Shown: positions 38,086 through 46,071, counted from the first letter of the stretch. The stretch is DNA of 64,000 bases from an uncultured delta proteobacterium (GCA_963752595.1 CAVVYZ010000002.1:32001-96000), one strand, 5' to 3'. Notes: generated by a model from the sequence alone, not told the origin. Numbers and translations: made by a program.

Positions 38086-38193
38086 CTACTTGCTGGGGTA
38101 GGGGTGGGAAGCCTTCCGGGAGAAGCGCGCTACGAAACGCAGGCCAATACCCGCAAAGGCCAAAGAGCCGATGGTTATGAAAAGCAGTGTCAT
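38086..38193 (-). CDS. 35-aa membrane microprotein B1 (MTLLFITIGSLAFAGIGLRFVARFSRKASHPYPSK)
   Basis: AGGAGG RBS, TAATG overlap with the upstream gene; same-length paralog at 45562-45669. Confidence 0.78.
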   Translation of the reverse strand: MTLLFITIGSLAFAGIGLRFVARFSRKASHPYPSK

Positions 38194-38429
38194 TAGCGCG
38201 CCCTCCTCTCGATGATGACCTCCTGGATAAAACCCTTGAAGCCGAGCACGATGCCGATGATGAGCAGGAGCAACGTGAAGTTGGGGGCCATGCCGGTTAC
38301 CTTGTCGAGCCAGAGTCCTGCATAGAGGCCCAGGTAGGTCATGACCACGAGCACGATGCTGTAGCCGCTGATCCTGGTGAGCCTGTTTGCCAGTGCCCTG
38401 GGGATTCTTTCTTTTCTTGCCTTTTTCAT
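38193..38429 (-). CDS. AtpZ/AtpI-like (ATPase gene 1 family) two-TM protein
   Basis: GLYAGLWLDKVTGMAPNFTLLLLIIGIVLGF matches the G-x3-G-x2-LD-x5-P pattern; AAGGAGG RBS. Confidence 0.8.
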   Translation of the reverse strand: MKKARKERIPRALANRLTRISGYSIVLVVMTYLGLYAGLWLDKVTGMAPNFTLLLLIIGIVLGFKGFIQEVIIERRAR

Positions 38430-38460
38430 GGCACACCTCCTTGAGCTGGTTTGCCGTGTC

Positions 38461-38637
38461 CTAGAAAAGCCTCATGATCAGTTCTCTTGCCGGTGCGGTA
38501 TTGATTCCCACCAGGGCTACCATGAGAATGAATACTGCGGTAGCTTCGGCAGCGGTGATTCCCAGCACCTTATAAGTGAACCTGATCCCGATCCCGGTCA
38601 TGAACAAGCATCCGATTACGATCCAAAGGGTCAGCAT
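38461..38637 (-). CDS. 58-aa membrane microprotein A1 (MLTLWIVIGCLFMTGIGIRFTYKVLGITAAEATAVFILMVALVGINTAPARELIMRLF), absent from the ORF track
   Basis: AAGGAGG RBS; 44/58 identical to the paralog at 45683-45859, with many synonymous changes. Confidence 0.88.
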   Translation of the reverse strand: MLTLWIVIGCLFMTGIGIRFTYKVLGITAAEATAVFILMVALVGINTAPARELIMRLF

Positions 38638-38681
38638 TGTCTTGTCCTCCTTTGTTTTTTATTGATTCCTGACAAGGATAT

Positions 38682-38697
38682 ATCAAGGGCCGTGCCA
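38682..38697 (-). promoter_or_regulatory. sigma54 -24/-12 promoter of microprotein operon 1
   Basis: TGGCAC-GGCCC-TTGAT on the minus strand; IHF-like TATCAG-TTAG-TTG at 38713-38725. Confidence 0.75.
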
Positions 38698-38761
38698 ACC
38701 GTTAAATGTTAACAACTAACTGATATTTAAAGACAATATAAATCAACTTGAAACCGGAGAT

Positions 38762-38857
38762 TGACAGTTTGGCACCAGGGGCTCATTTCAGCACCTCTGC
38801 TTTGACAAACTGGCAAAATGATCTTGAATCCGATTTCTTCCCAATGACAGTTTGGCA
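38762..38857. promoter_or_regulatory. Three putative bEBP enhancer boxes TGACA-N3-TGGCA
   Basis: Boxes at 38762-38774, 38803-38815 and 38845-38857; spacing 41 and 42 bp. Confidence 0.75.
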
Positions 38858-38868
38858 TATACCTTGCC

Positions 38869-40264
38869 CTATCGGGCATTGGTCAGCCTGATATGAACTC
38901 CCATGTCCTCGTAGGCAACCAGCCGCGATTGAAAGCTGCTCTTGAGAATGCCGTTCTCATCCACGTAATCGTAGATTATTGCCTCGTGCTTGCCTTCGGA
39001 TACCCGCAGGATGCGGCCTATGTACTGCTTCACCCTCCCGGTGAACTTGATGGGCGTTGCAAGGAAGATGGAGGTGAGCTCCTTGAGGTCGAACCCCTCG
39101 CCGATGAGCTGGGCCGTGGCAACGAGGATATGGTCACGGGTATTGTTCAGCTTTTCGATGAGCTCGGCTCGCTGGTTCGTGGGCATTGAGCCGGTGAGGA
39201 GCGATACGGATGAGCCCTTGGAGGCGATCATCCGGTAGAGCTCCTCGCAGTGCGCCACACGGTCCGAGATCACCAGCGCGATGCCGTTCTCGCCCGAGTT
39301 GGTGCGCTCGACCACGTCGCTTGCGATGAGTGCGTTTCTCTTCTTGTCCGCTATCAGGGCCGAGATCATGGACTGGTATTCATCGGAATCGAAGTAGTAT
39401 GCACATTTCGTATTCCTAACCTTGAGCGTCGCTCTCATGATCTTCTCGATATCCTGGAGCTGGCGCGGCTGTATCCGGTGGAGACGGTCGCCGAGGTGAA
39501 AGTAGATGATCCTGGTGAGCTTGTCGCGGCGGTACGGCGTTGCGGACAGGCCGAGCATGAACGCGGTGTCGAGCTTGCCGGCAACCTCGGTAAAGGAGCG
39601 GGCAGGGACATGATGACATTCATCCACGATCAGGTGGCCGATTAACGGTTTGACCTCGTCAATGACTTTGAAGAGCGAATTGATGATCGCAATGGTAAGC
39701 TTTCTGCCTGTCTGCTTTTTTCCGTCTCCGACCAGCCCCACCTCATCTTCGGTGATATCCAGGAATTCGACCGCGCGCTTGAGCCACTGGTACATGAGCT
39801 CCTTGGTGTGGACGACCACGAGGGCAGGCTGAGCCCTGCGGGCAATGATATTCAGGGCAATCACCGTCTTCCCGGCTCCCGGAGGCGCTTCGAGCACGCC
39901 GAACCTTCGGGCGGTGAGGTCTCTGACTGCCTGGACCTGGTAGGGATGAAGCGTTGCCCGGAAGTCGAAAGTCACCGGATCGAGCATCCGGGTGCGGTCT
40001 ACGAGCATGTAGGGGGAGGGAGCCATTCTGCTCAGCAGGTGGTTGATATACCCGCGGGGAAGGATAAGGACGCCGTTTTCCCTCTCGTAGTAATCGAGCA
40101 TCTCGGGCTGGAAGTTGCGCCTTCTGCTCCTTTTGTATTTCTCCACCTGCTCCCACTTCGGGTTCGGGCAGGGTGAGATCTGCTTCAATGCGTTTGATGA
40201 CTTCCGGTGCAAGATCCGCCTCGAGCACCCTGACGGCGTTGTCTATGTGGATAACTGCTTCCAT
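38869..40264 (-). CDS. SF2 DEAD/DEAH (XPB/ResIII-like) helicase with one apparent +1 indel near 40167
   Basis: PPGAGKT, DECHH, GLSAT, GEGFD, QYIGRILR. The N-terminus MEAVIHIDN...DLTLP is in another frame and joins at CTGCCCGAAC. Confidence 0.85.
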
Positions 40265-40292
40265 TGCTGTGTTGCCTTTACAAATAAGACGA

Positions 40293-40865
40293 TCAGATGA
40301 CGCTTTTAAGGTCGTCGATGAGTCCGGCTGCCTCGTCTTTGCTCAATTCGATCCGCACCTTGCCGCCCCCGGGATGTGCAAAGGCGAGACGGATCTCCGA
40401 GCCGTCCTTCTCAACCGTCCATCTCCTGCCTTTGGGCATTTTCACCTTTGGCGAGAGCCAGTCGTCCGCCTCGAATTCAGCGATCTGGATGAGCACGCCG
40501 AAGGCATCTCTCGGATGGATGAAAAGCTCTTTCCAGATGGGGCCGTAGTCATTGAACCCGAAATAGGGGACATTGTTCTTTTCCAGGGTCTTTTTCGCCT
40601 CGTAGATATCGGGGGTCTGCATGGTGATGTGGTGGACGCCTCCCTGCTTGCTGCTCAGAAAGCCGTCGAGGAAGCTTCCGTCCCCGGTGGGGGTAAGGAG
40701 CTCGAACCTGCTCAAGTCGCCCAGCGCCATATTTTGCCAGAGATATTTCATGCTGCCGTCATCTGCATACGTGCCGGGCACGGCGCCGAGAAGCGTGGTG
40801 AAGAAGCTCAATGCCTTGTCATAGTCTCTTACTGCAAGAGCGACATGGTCGATTCGTGAGATCAT
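40293..40865 (-). CDS. VOC-family protein, methylmalonyl-CoA epimerase-like, with C-terminal extension
   Basis: IDHVALAV, FELL, GGVHHIT, FIHPRDAFGVLIQ. Confidence 0.82.
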   Translation of the reverse strand: MISRIDHVALAVRDYDKALSFFTTLLGAVPGTYADDGSMKYLWQNMALGDLSRFELLTPTGDGSFLDGFLSSKQGGVHHITMQTPDIYEAKKTLEKNNVPYFGFNDYGPIWKELFIHPRDAFGVLIQIAEFEADDWLSPKVKMPKGRRWTVEKDGSEIRLAFAHPGGGKVRIELSKDEAAGLIDDLKSVI

Positions 40866-40979
40866 AAAGAACCACCTCTGATACAGTATGGCATATGTTC
40901 GTATAAGAAAGCTCCGTGGTTCGTCAATCGTTTTATCCGTGAGTCGGGGAAGCCTGCTCCGCCGGGGAAAGGACGTGTA

Positions 40980-42323
40980 TTATACATGCCCCTGCGGAGA
41001 AGGAAGCTGAAGCTCTGCACAGGGTTTCCCCTTATCAGCCGCGCCCCGGCAAGCTACCATGCCATTGATACCTTTGTCCTTGTGGGTGAAATCGATTGCC
41101 ATGATGTCCCGTGTCCTCCTCACGACTCGGCCCCGGGCCATGACATACCCTTCCTTGCCGTCTCCCGAGAGGTTGATGCTGAGATACCTGCCTTTCGGAC
41201 AGGGGTGTGCAGTGGAGAGCAGCAGCCCGTTTTCGCTGATATCGATCAGGCGCCCCGTCGTCTCCGATGCATCTCCCTGGGCTTTATATACCACATCGAT
41301 GAGAAGCGGATACCTCCGGGACTTTCGTCTCTCCTGGATGCTCCAGGCCATCCGGATAGAATCGATCTCTTCTTTTATGGCATCGCCGATCGGTGTATAT
41401 GCCATCCCCAGCTCCTTCTGCGACCTGCTGCCGTCTGCCATGAGGCTGTTCTGCAAGGTCATAAGATATTCGGGAGACATTCCCTGGAATGGAGGCCTGT
41501 TCAGGACCCTCGCCACTAGGGCGGAAGCGCCGGCCACGAACATGGCCAGAGAGTCGGGCAGGATTACCCTGGCAGTTTTGGATCCTATGACCTCTGATAC
41601 GGCTGCCAACAGGCGGCGTGTGGATATGCGTTCATGGGCAATGAAGTAACGTTTGCCCACAGCGCCGTCGAGGGTTAGGACCCTTGAAATAGCCTCTGCC
41701 ACATCCTGGACATGGATATAGGTATGGGCCGAATTCATCGATGACCTGGAAAAGAGCGAGTAGCTCATGATCCTTCTGACGGGGGATATGCGGTTTCTGT
41801 TTCTCCCCGGCCCGAGGACCACGGCCGGATAGCATACCGTCAGCGGAAGGCCCTTCTTGTAATGAAGGACCCATGCGATCCGCTCAGCCTCATATTTGCT
41901 CCGGGCCAGTTCGCTGAACCGCTGCGGCCCGATCGTGCTCTCCTCGTTGAACTTGGCCTGTGCCGGTTTGCCGTAGACATACAGCGGGCTCACATGGATC
42001 ACCCGGGAAATACCCGTCTCCAGAGCGCACTCCATGACGTTTCGTGTGCCGTTCACATTGACCTCGGCATAAATCTTTTTATGGGACTCCCAGAAGGATG
42101 ATGTTCCTGCCAGGTGGATAAGGGCTTCACATCCCGACATCCCGGGGAGAATGGTTTTTCTGTCTCTCACATCTCCCCAGACAAGATCGACGTCGAGTTT
42201 TTCCAACTCCTGAATATGGCTTGTCTTCCTGACGAGGCACACCAGTTGGTGGCCTTGCTTGACCAGGAGCCTCGCGGCATGGGTGCCTATGAAGCCCGTA
42301 GCGCCTGTGATAAAGATTTTCAT
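40980..42323 (-). CDS. Extended SDR (HpnA/DFR-like) fused to a C-terminal PilZ domain
   Basis: TGATGFIG, HLAG, NVNGT; C-terminal ERRKSRR and DISENG PilZ motifs. Confidence 0.85.
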   Translation of the reverse strand: MKIFITGATGFIGTHAARLLVKQGHQLVCLVRKTSHIQELEKLDVDLVWGDVRDRKTILPGMSGCEALIHLAGTSSFWESHKKIYAEVNVNGTRNVMECALETGISRVIHVSPLYVYGKPAQAKFNEESTIGPQRFSELARSKYEAERIAWVLHYKKGLPLTVCYPAVVLGPGRNRNRISPVRRIMSYSLFSRSSMNSAHTYIHVQDVAEAISRVLTLDGAVGKRYFIAHERISTRRLLAAVSEVIGSKTARVILPDSLAMFVAGASALVARVLNRPPFQGMSPEYLMTLQNSLMADGSRSQKELGMAYTPIGDAIKEEIDSIRMAWSIQERRKSRRYPLLIDVVYKAQGDASETTGRLIDISENGLLLSTAHPCPKGRYLSINLSGDGKEGYVMARGRVVRRTRDIMAIDFTHKDKGINGMVACRGAADKGKPCAELQLPSPQGHV

Positions 42324-42619
42324 CCGATCCCTCCAAACAATGAAATTAAAACAATTCAGCGAGAGATCTTCCCCTGCGGAAGCCCCTCTGCACAGGGTGA
42401 CTGCCGGGAAAGAACTGTCTTAATAATATCATACTATGAAGAAAAATCAAGGGCTTGAATATTATTTCAGCCAGATGGAGGGATTTTCAAGGACAGATCA
42501 AAGAGAGGTTTCTGCCGGTGCGAATTGATCACACCTCAACCGACATCCCGTCTCATACGCACATTCGAACTCGATGGATCCGCACCGCTGAAGCATGGAA
42601 TCTCCCAGATGGGTGAGAA

Positions 42620-42811
42620 TTAATTTTTTGCAATCGGGTTCACGGCGGTGTTCCATGAGGGTGAGGTAGTTGAGGTGATTGCCGGCATATCTCTCGTATT
42701 CGAAGGTCTCGCAGATGAAGAGGTCGCAAGGATGCTGCTCCGGAGCCTGCCGCCGCTTCCGAATGCATCCCCGGAACCGAGAAACAGGACCTTGACAGAA
42801 CCCGCATCCAT
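42620..42811 (-). pseudogene. N-terminal fragment of an MBL-fold/RNase Z-like hydrolase
   Basis: VLFLGSGDAFGSGGR; similarity ends before any HxHxDH motif. Confidence 0.55.
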
Positions 42812-42815
42812 GGCT

Positions 42816-45227
42816 CTAGAAAACCTTCTTGAGCGCGTCCTTCAGCTCTTCGGCGGTATAGGGCTTGGCGACGGCACCACTGAAGCCGAATTCCCGGTAG
42901 TTCTCCAGGAGGTTCTCTTCTGCGTAGCCGCTCGACACAATGCCGATCACTCCCGGATCTATCTCCTTGAGCTTCTTCATGGTCTCGGCACCGCCCATGC
43001 CGTTATCGACCGTAAGGTCGAGAATCACTACGTCGAAGGAGCGGCCGGAGCGTTTTGCCTCGATAAACTTCTCGATGGCCTCCTCGCCGTTTTTCGATGA
43101 CTCCACCTGGTACCCCAGGTGCTCAAGGATCTCGGAAGCAGCGTCCCTGATCATCTCTTCGTCGTCCATGGTGAGGATGGACTCCCGGGAGGCGCTTGCA
43201 TGAGGTTGAGCAGCCTCTTCCATCCCCGTTTCCTTAATGCTTGCCGGCAGGTAGATGCTGAATACGCTCCCTGAACCGACATTTGACTCCACAACGATAT
43301 AGCCGCCATGCTTCTTTATGATGGAATAGGCGGTCGTCAGCCCGAGCCCCATTCCTTTCTGTGTGCCTTTGCCCTTGGTCGAAAAGTAAGGATCGAAGAT
43401 CTTATCCTTGATTTCTTCAGGGATTCCTGTCCCCTGATCACGGATGTCGATGACCACATACGGGCCTTGTTTTACGAATTTCGGATGTTCGGTGTTGTCC
43501 TGGCCGATGGTGGTATTTTTTGCGGCTATGGTGATCCGTCCGTCCCCATGCATGGCTTCCCTGGCATTCATGATGATGTTATGGAAGGCATGCATGATCT
43601 GATTCTGGTCGAATTCGACCATCCAGAGGCCGTCCGGAATATCGTACATGCAGGTGATATGCGTTCCCGAGAGTGCGAGATTTACCGCATCCGAAACGAG
43701 CGGCACCAGGGGGGCATTTTTCTTGTTCGAGAGCCCGCCCTTAGCGAGGGTCAGGAACTGCCTGATGAGATCACGGGAACGGGTACATGCCTCGATGGCC
43801 TTTACCAGCCTTTTATTTGCAGGATGATCCTGGGTAATGTGGAACTGCGCAAGCTCGATGTTGCCCAGAATCGTTGCGAGGAGATTATTGAAATCATGGG
43901 CGATGCCGCCGGCAAGCGTGCTGATGGATTCGAGCTTGCTCACCTTGATGTTCTCCTCTTCCTTTATCTTGCGATCCGTAATGTCGCGGGAAACGGCAGC
44001 CACACCCGAGACGGAGCCGTCCGGCTCAAAGAACGGATAATAGCTCAGGAGGCTGTACCGGCTCCCCCATCCCGGATAGTCGAACCATTCTTCATGATGG
44101 ATCTCTTTCCCTTCAAGGGCATTGTCCAGGTGTTTCTTCATCTTTCCGTCGAATACGTCCGGGCCGACGATTTCCGCGACGCTTCGCCCGATGAAATCCT
44201 TGCGCGTTTTGTTGAATGCGGAGAGATAGGCGTCATTGACTGCCTGGAATATATAATTTCCGTCGATGAAGGACATGGGGTTGTGGACCGTGGCGATGAT
44301 GAGTTCATACTTGTGCAGCAGTTCCTCTGCCTTGGTCCTGTTGATAACATCGCCGATCCTTCCTGCGACCGTCTCCAGGGCAATCCTCGAAGTAACGGGA
44401 ATCTTGTCGAAGTCGCGGGAGATCAGGCTTAAAGAAGCTATTACGGAGCCTTCGGATTTTATGGGGATGATCGCAACCCCCCGGATATCATCCGGCGGGA
44501 GTGAAACCCGGAACCTCTTCGAGGCTTCCTGATTGCTCCAGTACAGGGGACGACCCTCTCTGATGAGGAGTACCTGAGGGGACCAGGCATCAAGGTGGGT
44601 CAGGGGTTTCACGAGATTGTCGGGCATGCCCTTCTGTACGACAAGGTCCATTCCCCCTGTGCGTTCCTGGAGTATATAGACACCCCCTGCATCGACTCCC
44701 TCCACCGCCAGGACCGCATCCAGGATGCGGGAAAGCAGCTCGCGAAGCTCCAGGGAAGAGCTCAGGACAAGGCCCAGATCGCGCTGGAAGCGAAGCAGGT
44801 CTTCTATCTGTTTGTGAGGGGTAATGTCCCGGGCAAGGATGGCTATCTCTTCGGGCCTTCTGCCTTCCTGGGAGACCGGATAGAGCATGATGTCATACCA
44901 TATCTGATCCTGTTTATATTCGAACTGCAGGGACTCACCGGAAGAGAACACCTTTTCGGCCTGTTCTTTCCTGAATTGCGATGAATCCGGAGGAAAGTAG
45001 TTCCAGAGACAGGTTCCGATGAATTCCTCATGGTGTATGCCGAGATAGCTTGAGACAACCTCGTTTGCATCCTGAACCGTTCCCTGTTCGTCGATGAGGA
45101 TGAAGAAATCTGTCTGAGCATCGAGGATTGCCCGGATGACGCCGAGATTATGCCGCATCTTGCTGTTTTCCGTTTGCAGTTCCCTGAGATGGTTCTCGGA
45201 ATCTCCCCGGGCTGCTTTTTCAAACAT
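42816..45227 (-). CDS. PAS-GAF-PAS hybrid histidine kinase with receiver domain
   Basis: LAGGIAHDFNN, GMGLGL, MDDEE...DLTV; AAGGAG RBS. Confidence 0.92.
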   Translation of the reverse strand: MFEKAARGDSENHLRELQTENSKMRHNLGVIRAILDAQTDFFILIDEQGTVQDANEVVSSYLGIHHEEFIGTCLWNYFPPDSSQFRKEQAEKVFSSGESLQFEYKQDQIWYDIMLYPVSQEGRRPEEIAILARDITPHKQIEDLLRFQRDLGLVLSSSLELRELLSRILDAVLAVEGVDAGGVYILQERTGGMDLVVQKGMPDNLVKPLTHLDAWSPQVLLIREGRPLYWSNQEASKRFRVSLPPDDIRGVAIIPIKSEGSVIASLSLISRDFDKIPVTSRIALETVAGRIGDVINRTKAEELLHKYELIIATVHNPMSFIDGNYIFQAVNDAYLSAFNKTRKDFIGRSVAEIVGPDVFDGKMKKHLDNALEGKEIHHEEWFDYPGWGSRYSLLSYYPFFEPDGSVSGVAAVSRDITDRKIKEEENIKVSKLESISTLAGGIAHDFNNLLATILGNIELAQFHITQDHPANKRLVKAIEACTRSRDLIRQFLTLAKGGLSNKKNAPLVPLVSDAVNLALSGTHITCMYDIPDGLWMVEFDQNQIMHAFHNIIMNAREAMHGDGRITIAAKNTTIGQDNTEHPKFVKQGPYVVIDIRDQGTGIPEEIKDKIFDPYFSTKGKGTQKGMGLGLTTAYSIIKKHGGYIVVESNVGSGSVFSIYLPASIKETGMEEAAQPHASASRESILTMDDEEMIRDAASEILEHLGYQVESSKNGEEAIEKFIEAKRSGRSFDVVILDLTVDNGMGGAETMKKLKEIDPGVIGIVSSGYAEENLLENYREFGFSGAVAKPYTAEELKDALKKVF

Positions 45228-45499
45228 GAACCGCTCTCCTTTTATGATCCTCACACACAGTTATGACGTATGTATGAGAGATTATCTCTGATGTGTCAAT
45301 ATCACATATCATAGAGCCTGTTCATGCTGTTTCAAACAGATTATTCCCGGCAGCCCGGCTTTAGGGGTCGCCCTTTTTCCCTCTCGCGACTCGCTTGCGG
45401 GTGCCCCGGGGGGAGAATACAGGAGAGGGGGTAAATGCTGATGCCGGCTTCAGGCAGAGGACGCCGATAGAAGAGAGGTCCAAGGAATAAAAATATGGA

Positions 45500-45538
45500 A
45501 AAGCGGCCCCGGAAGATGCCATATCCCCAAGGACCGCG
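45500..45538 (-). terminator. Probable terminator of microprotein operon 2
   Basis: Minus strand GCGGTCCTTGGGGAT...ATCTTCCGGGGCCGC imperfect stem followed by TTTT. Confidence 0.6.
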
Positions 45539-45561
45539 AATGGTTGTTTTGCCGGGAAGGA

Positions 45562-45669
45562 CTATTTTACCCTGTCGGCGACAGGTTCTTTGAAAAGCAC
45601 TCTGGCGGCAAACCTGTATCCGATTCCGATGAAAGATACGATGCCGATGATGGTGAATATGAGTGTCAT
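45562..45669 (-). CDS. 35-aa membrane microprotein B2 (MTLIFTIIGIVSFIGIGYRFAARVLFKEPVADRVK), absent from the ORF track
   Basis: AAGGAG/AGGA RBS; 16/35 identical to B1 and the same length. Confidence 0.78.
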   Translation of the reverse strand: MTLIFTIIGIVSFIGIGYRFAARVLFKEPVADRVK

Positions 45670-45682
45670 GGTCCTTTTCTCC

Positions 45683-45859
45683 TTAAAACATCTGGGCAAT
45701 CATTTGTCTTGCCGGCCCGGAATTGATGCCTATCAGCATAACGATAAGTATGAATACGGCGGTTGCCTCGGCAGGGGTGAGCCCCAGAACTTTGTACGTA
45801 AACCTGATCCCGATCCCTGTCATGAACAAGCATCCGATAATAATCCAAAGGGTAACCAT
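45683..45859 (-). CDS. 58-aa membrane microprotein A2 (MVTLWIIIGCLFMTGIGIRFTYKVLGLTPAEATAVFILIVMLIGINSGPARQMIAQMF), absent from the ORF track
   Basis: GAGGAG RBS; paralog of A1. Confidence 0.88.
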   Translation of the reverse strand: MVTLWIIIGCLFMTGIGIRFTYKVLGLTPAEATAVFILIVMLIGINSGPARQMIAQMF

Positions 45860-45898
45860 CTTCTATCTCCTCTCATGTGTTTATGCGTCCTCACATTG

Positions 45899-45914
45899 AG
45901 CAAGGAGAATGCCA
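45899..45914 (-). promoter_or_regulatory. sigma54 -24/-12 promoter of microprotein operon 2
   Basis: TGGCAT-TCTCC-TTGCT on the minus strand; IHF-like site at 45930-45942. Confidence 0.85.
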
Positions 45915-45977
45915 GGTGACCATCATTTGTAACTTAATGAAAATTAAAGATAAATAAACATTGCAGAAAATGATGAA

Positions 45978-46071
45978 TGACAAATTGACAATATGGGATC
46001 AAATTACTTCGAGGTTTTTGTCAAGTTGGCAAAAATACGGAGTGCAGCCTGAAATATGTGACAACTTGGCA
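45978..46071. promoter_or_regulatory. Three putative bEBP enhancer boxes TGNCA-N3-TGNCA
   Basis: TGACAaatTGACA at 45978, TGTCAagtTGGCA at 46019 and TGACAactTGGCA at 46059; spacing 41 and 40 bp. Confidence 0.75.

Follow-up and report, generated by a model that had tools for sequence, protein, structure and literature searches.

A sigma54-controlled microprotein family of the Desulfobacterota and its possible kinship with ATP synthase subunit c

The window analysed here is a stretch of 64,000 nucleotides from an uncultured delta proteobacterium (GCA_963752595.1 CAVVYZ010000002.1:32001-96000), in which two small operons between positions 38086 and 46071 encode membrane microproteins termed A, Z, and B. 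All positions are those of the whole window, and both operons, together with their control sites, lie on the minus strand. Operon 1 comprises A1 (38461..38637; 58 amino acids, predicted to form a helical hairpin followed by a C-terminal helix and carrying an invariant glutamate, Glu31), Z (38193..38429; 78 amino acids, an orphan protein of the AtpZ/AtpQ family, PF09527), and B1 (38086..38193; 35 amino acids, a single hydrophobic helix with a basic tail), the start of B1 overlapping the stop of Z by 1 nt. Operon 2 comprises A2 (45683..45859; 58 amino acids), a paralog of A1 by way of an older duplication, directly followed by B2 (45562..45669; 35 amino acids). An earlier reading of the window from its sequence alone (hereafter the sequence-only reading) had proposed these five open reading frames (ORFs), each behind a strong ribosome-binding site; their coordinates were borne out, with sites of the AGGAG/GGAGG type.

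The identities reported between the paralogs, 44/58 for A1 and A2 and 16/35 for B1 and B2, were likewise reproduced, and a hand count of about 15 synonymous changes between A1 and A2 became 17 synonymous codon differences, with nonsynonymous (dN) and synonymous (dS) rates of 0.15 and 0.95. The two paralogous A operons are indeed present in the window, but the genome as a whole holds four A copies. The third gene, at C1:235913, has a Z gene and the same promoter as the window operons. The fourth, G000:C22:157023-157202, stands alone just 3' of a tRNA-like gene and has an ortholog in locus L129; neither a sigma54 site nor palindromes were found upstream of it.

The promoters of the two window operons share one layout. 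In operon 1, the sigma54 -24/-12 site (38683..38697) carries GA in place of GC at -12, a variant also present in loci orthologous to this operon, and the enhancer region (38762..38857) contains three palindromes of the form TG[ACT]CA-N3-TG[TGA]CA at 38845-38857, 38803-38815, and 38762-38774, spaced 41-42 bp apart. An IHF-like site lies in the A/T-rich spacer (38713..38725), and a similar site was counted, without a shuffle control, in 40/62 related promoters. Operon 2 has a canonical GG-N10-GC site (45900..45914) and an enhancer region (45978..46071) with palindromes at 46059-46071, 46019-46031, and 45978-45990. Control by sigma54, as the sequence-only reading had supposed, was upheld by a survey of 67 A copies from 64 loci, of which 60 copies had enough downstream and 63 enough upstream DNA; the surveyed genomes are related to one another, and a single genome contributed several loci. 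A -24/-12 site was found in 62 of the 63 copies and at least two upstream palindromes in 58. In related copies, the -24 box is separated from the palindromes by 74-77, 116-119, and 152-162 bp. When the genome was scanned for this layout with weight matrices whose training set included the A1 sites, three places were returned, all of them A genes, as against none in three shuffles; the A operons thus form a dedicated regulon. A scan for sigma70 promoters and terminators stayed at chance level. Fifteen intact sigma54 activators were listed in the search for the one that serves the A promoters, and none of them consistently adjoins A.

Relatives of A numbered 388 at an expectation value (E) of E<=0.01, and a profile search of 1.84 billion representatives returned 14 close relatives (E<=1e-10) besides two long unrelated matches. 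A was found in 33/36 genomes of the host's family and in 0/24 of the sister family searched, with up to 7 copies per genome and a sequence identity of 67-93%. The source names of the relatives point to Desulfomonilia; a wider range, suggested by records labelled Bacteriovoracaceae or Firmicutes, was considered and set aside, since these records fall among rows labelled Desulfomonilia or Syntrophaceae in the A tree. The usual gene order is A-Z-B, seen in 45 of 60 copies, the others being 8 A-B (in one of which Z was probably missed), 2 A-Z, and 5 A alone. Given that the A2 clade includes A-Z-B operons, operon 2 is a derived form that lost Z, whence the position of B2 directly after A2. The purifying selection that had been proposed from the two window copies was substantiated in relatives, where the ORFs are kept and A and Z show median pairwise dN/dS values of 0.20 and 0.19, the B helix one of 0.47. 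A-Z-B is a real and unnamed family of microproteins, strongly selected, present in multiple copies, and controlled as a sigma54 regulon of its own. Two variants were noted in passing, namely a locus with two tandem A genes (L111:1722-2089) and a database protein (P0129) in which the beginning of A is fused with the end of Z, through either a deletion or misassembly.

Only Z passes membership of any known family tested, scoring 44.4 bits against PF09527 (cut-off 26.6). For A and B, no recognised family had been proposed, and this stood: no Pfam match was obtained, 54 members of A and its two related forms described below (A' and A'') having been checked, and NCBIfam matches lay far below cut-off. 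A possible link to DUF1614 was dropped for want of Pfam support. The ESM Atlas gave no named cluster; a 61-residue cluster of 57 members common to A (0.88) and the A' core (0.91) is a lead only. The papers accessible, few of them from subscription journals, yielded in title or abstract nothing on the A family or on a truncated paralog of c.

The motif IG-x5-GIG-x-RF, by which the sequence-only reading had defined the family, is present in all four window peptides (IG at 8-9, GIG at 15-17, and RF at 19-20) but is not a family signature. Among distinct sequences from related loci, the full motif occurs in 1/51 B and 35/59 A, only G9 and R19 being invariant in B, so that by alignment it is a feature of the window lineage. 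The associated proposal that B is a single-helix homolog of A helix 1 was corroborated by hhalign, which gave a score of 25.3, above the 17.1 that was the highest among 100 segment shuffles, the alignment starting at residue 1 and spanning 26-27 columns. No homology was detected with hhalign between B and Z (score 14.6), between B and either ATP synthase subunit c or the A' core, or between A and Z.

A dedicated regulon with three promoters and small hydrophobic products, including a B peptide with a basic tail, might be expected of a general effector for envelope stress or dormancy, akin to Psp or to a toxin, whose action either stabilises or depolarises the membrane. The Psp response is itself a sigma54-driven operon of small membrane proteins, and A-Z-B shares that layout. 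The A-Z-B proteins, however, have no Pfam match to Psp proteins, and PspA/IM30 gave 0 matches in the genome (84% complete). All 15 intact activators, moreover, carry an N-terminal extension ahead of the ATPase domain, unlike PspF, whose layout has none, and both the very high conservation of A (67-93% identity) and the lack of a family match for A and B speak against such an effector, which we regard as improbable.

A broader superfamily emerged from weak tblastn matches in the same genome, which led to A', a leader-bearing protein of 91 residues whose gene precedes another PF09527 gene (Z'). A is homologous to A' as judged from profile alignment, the hhalign score of A against the A' core being 32.2 over 51-54 columns, compared with a maximum of 21.0 in 100 shuffles. 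A leaderless form of 64-69 residues, A'', was seen in another family. All 54 aligned A, A', and A'' sequences keep G9 and E31, and the joint profile of the three gave strong matches in 17/401 genomes of the phylum, from five families, besides six weak unrelated matches. In the recurring A' locus, a dCache kinase is accompanied by an NtrC-type activator, A', and Z'; the opposite side carries a stand-alone c gene (c') driven from a sigma54 promoter and, after it, a dCache membrane protein that lacks an output domain. In three genomes of another family, a single run of genes contains c, Cache, and A'', and in two of these Z comes next. A type-I stand-alone Cache gene was present in 24/25 family genomes with A' (in two of them split over two contigs) and in 0/16 without, while in a sample of 251 genomes of the phylum Cache occurred in 9/9 genomes with A' and in one further genome as Cache only. 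A c gene adjoins the Cache gene in 29/30 loci, and Cache homologs of either type were found in 39/40 family genomes. The A' enhancer motif exceeded the shuffled 95th percentile in 17/21 c' promoters and in 1/62 A promoters, from which it is likely that A' and c' share an activator, whereas the window A operons answer to another.

Several loci of this kind were noted in the host genome and its relatives. At G000:C17:305879-313163 (L043) and G000:C5:119151-122182 (L044), c' and the dCache gene stand beside the kinase, activator, A', and Z'; the near-identical copies on C5 and C17 may reflect duplication or assembly contamination (6.8%). Two A'-Z' units (G000:C17:312532-315617 and C17:335579-338399) lie upstream of genes named by eye as acetyl-CoA synthetase-like, which read in several frames. 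A second c/Cache pair, at G000:C1:369519-374501, has no sigma54 site and lies ahead of rnf-like genes, also named by eye.

The resemblance of A to subunit c itself was approached from both ends. Against 177,635 PDB sequences, the A profile gave 10 matches at E<=10, nine of which were c subunits (best E 0.011), and the joint profile of A, A', and A'' had a sole match, the Acetobacterium woodii c1 subunit (PDB 4bem; E 0.83). Within the host's own genome (41,662 ORFs, of which 2,781 have a hydrophobic window), the five c genes took ranks 8, 10, 12, 13, and 14 with the joint profile, after the seven family members; conversely, a profile of 28 c sequences placed the four A paralogs at ranks 6-9 (E 0.046-0.53), immediately behind the five c genes. 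With a profile of the c N-terminus (55 columns), the three A' copies came out at ranks 5-7 (E 0.016-0.037) and outranked other leader peptides, and the best match of the A profile outside the family was the c/Cache pair at C1:369519-374501. In hhalign, residues 24-55 of A fell on 88-119 of c, comprising the outer helix and tail, and residues 1-49 of A' fell on 1-51 of c, comprising the deltaproteobacterial c leader and the start of helix 1. Glu31, present in 59/59 distinct A sequences, aligns on the ion-binding glutamate of c, the residue that carries the ion in that subunit. The spacing of 18 from this glutamate to a proline is kept in 43/43 A, 40/40 A', and 25/28 c sequences.

There are also differences. 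PF00137 gave no match for A or for any of the 54 superfamily members, and the R-[NQ]-P loop that docks F1, with an arginine (R75) invariant in the 28 c sequences, and the Gly-repeat inner helix are both absent from A and A'. Compared with subunit c (PF00137), A is thus alike in its outer helix and tail, in the register of the glutamate, and in its multiple gene copies (A. woodii having several c genes), whereas it is some 30 residues shorter mid-protein, lacks the RNP loop, has a predicted turn just ahead of the glutamate, and sits outside the atp operons behind its own sigma54 promoter. Judging by these alignments, A' looks like a c subunit in which a short basic loop stands in for about 30 residues of the centre, the F1-docking loop among them, and A looks like the same layout without the leader. 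A is likely a cut-down relative of subunit c, and common descent of the two appears reasonably probable. A further atp-like operon, whose c gene apparently encodes a double hairpin, was seen in two family genomes (L221, L242).

The partner protein Z is like AtpZ/AtpQ in passing the PF09527 cut-off, and unlike them as an orphan copy, lying outside the atp and N-ATPase operons, whose own PF09527 copies are found elsewhere in the genome; PF09527 genes otherwise stand in atp operons among the genomes examined. In a tree of 43 rows, the Z proteins linked to A and to A' form one weakly supported group, distinct from the AtpZ of atp operons and the AtpQ of N-ATPases. Two tandem orphan Z' genes (L231 and L232, on G140:C6) were seen with no A-family gene detected adjacent, and locus L038 (G000:C9:333532-333983) has a sigma54 site and retains Z' intact, with a mere remnant of A' ahead of it. 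As to function, passages of PMC4453477 report that the AtpZ of Bacillus pseudofirmus OF4 aids Mg2+ acquisition and that AtpI aids assembly; AtpI is required for c-ring assembly in A. woodii, as described in part of PMC4320612. AtpQ and AtpI are treated as separate families in the relevant section of PMC2881411, which also records atpQ outside N-ATPase operons, and their functional homology is left open in the corresponding passages of PMC4154653. AtpI/UncI, the proven c-ring chaperone, thus belongs to another Pfam family than Z (PMC2881411, in part), so that Z can be called a chaperone by analogy only.

Taken together, these observations lead to the reading that A is an inducible, c-derived microprotein acting on Fo with the help of the orphan AtpZ, to which we assign slightly less than an even chance. 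A number of findings weigh against it. The c subunits matched by the A profile in the PDB are mutually related, and all matches between the A family and c are borderline (E 0.011-0.83; hhalign probability 5-24%). The A' core alone found no c in the PDB and c only at rank 39 in the genome, and the search of 401 genomes returned no c subunit at E<=0.001, yet six unrelated ORFs. In an AlphaFold model of A, computed as a single monomer with no membrane, helices span residues 2-25, 29-46, and 48-57 with a turn at 26-28 (predicted local distance difference test, pLDDT, 82; predicted template modelling score, pTM, 0.51); Glu31 would accordingly lie near the membrane surface and not mid-membrane as in c, which would speak against A as a working rotor subunit and fits better with a decoy or accessory. 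No c or Cache gene was found within 8 kb of any of the 67 A copies, and the A promoters carry a different enhancer from c', so that A's own link to c' runs through homology; the co-occurrence counts of A' and Cache, for their part, were drawn from kin genomes. Finally, the grouping of A-linked with A'-linked Z is weakly supported (88/52), and Z is dispensable, being undetected beside 13/60 A copies and 17/30 A' copies with enough flank.

The borderline nature of the c matches also lends itself to another explanation, in which the likeness to c is chance or a relic and A, Z, and B act as small regulators that feed back on a membrane sensor (either the dCache kinase or the Cache protein lacking an output domain) or serve as accessory peptides in another complex such as Rnf. 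The position of A' directly behind the kinase and activator genes, and that of the second c/Cache pair ahead of the rnf-like genes, would be in keeping with it. Both ends of the superfamily nevertheless select c in reciprocal genome-wide ranks, the partner gene family otherwise belongs to atp operons among the genomes examined, and no kinase or Cache homolog adjoins the A copies; we hold this explanation to be unlikely, albeit deserving of fair consideration.

Under the preferred reading of A as a c-derived effector on Fo, we infer each step beyond the gene anatomy as follows. A sigma54 activator, other than that of A', would switch on solely the A operons. The resulting A would retain the outer helix, ion-binding glutamate, and C-terminal tail of c, without the Gly-rich cytoplasmic half and the F1-docking loop, and, produced in bulk from several gene copies, might join or contact the c-ring or subunit a as a decoy or insert. 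A lodged in Fo might throttle or retune proton flow, with Z possibly helping to place it, by analogy to AtpI with c-rings, and B perhaps serving as an optional modulator. The fuller proposal, in which a loop-less mini-c encoded in up to seven sigma54-driven copies is inserted or docked at the c-ring by the orphan AtpZ as a signal-triggered brake or gearing change, alongside a co-regulated alternative full-length c, is a doubtful though tenable possibility.

That A bears the glutamate but not the F1-docking loop, and that it is amplified, often without Z, would equally suit a small oligomer of A (with Z and B) that is independent of the ATP synthase and conducts or takes up H+, Na+, or Mg2+, and the reported part of AtpZ in Mg2+ acquisition (passages of PMC4453477) points the same way. 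Such an oligomer leaves unexplained, however, why A' has its enhancer and its distribution in common with an intact stand-alone c gene, and the predicted position of Glu31 near the surface does not favour it; it is, in our estimation, rather unlikely. The sequence-only reading had left three options side by side, namely a membrane-stress effector, an ion or proton conductance modulator, and an ATP synthase regulator. The link to ATP synthase has since been strengthened by the homology to A', the c-subunit regulon, and the c-like outer helix, whereas membrane stress gained no evidence. Among known small proteins, AtpTheta of cyanobacteria is condition-dependent and is proposed to control ATP synthase, being described as an inhibitor in portions of PMC12648545; compared by description only, both it and A are small, whereas AtpTheta is described as amphipathic and A is a predicted integral hairpin, c-like, with a partner of the AtpZ family.

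The preferred reading bears on an open question, namely how ATP synthase is adjusted in bacteria that live near the thermodynamic limit. A signal-controlled microprotein derived from c would, if true, constitute a regulator on Fo made from a rotor subunit, and energy-limited Desulfobacterota would have built it from the rotor itself; AtpZ/AtpQ, a family without a settled function, would gain a small and testable client. The A, Z, and B genes are tiny and easy to express, which renders the idea directly testable, and should the mechanism prove wrong, there would still be a multi-copy, unnamed family under strong selection, with a regulon to itself.

Between the two operons of the window lie genes for a helicase, a glyoxalase, an epimerase-PilZ protein, and a hybrid kinase, which are unrelated neighbours outside the A-Z-B unit. 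The epimerase-PilZ gene (40980-42323, minus strand) encodes an NAD-dependent epimerase with a C-terminal PilZ fusion. Short broken frames at 42498-42811 (minus strand) are a likely pseudogene resembling the start of a hydrolase-like gene of 247 amino acids, a gene that L024 and L026 keep intact downstream of B.

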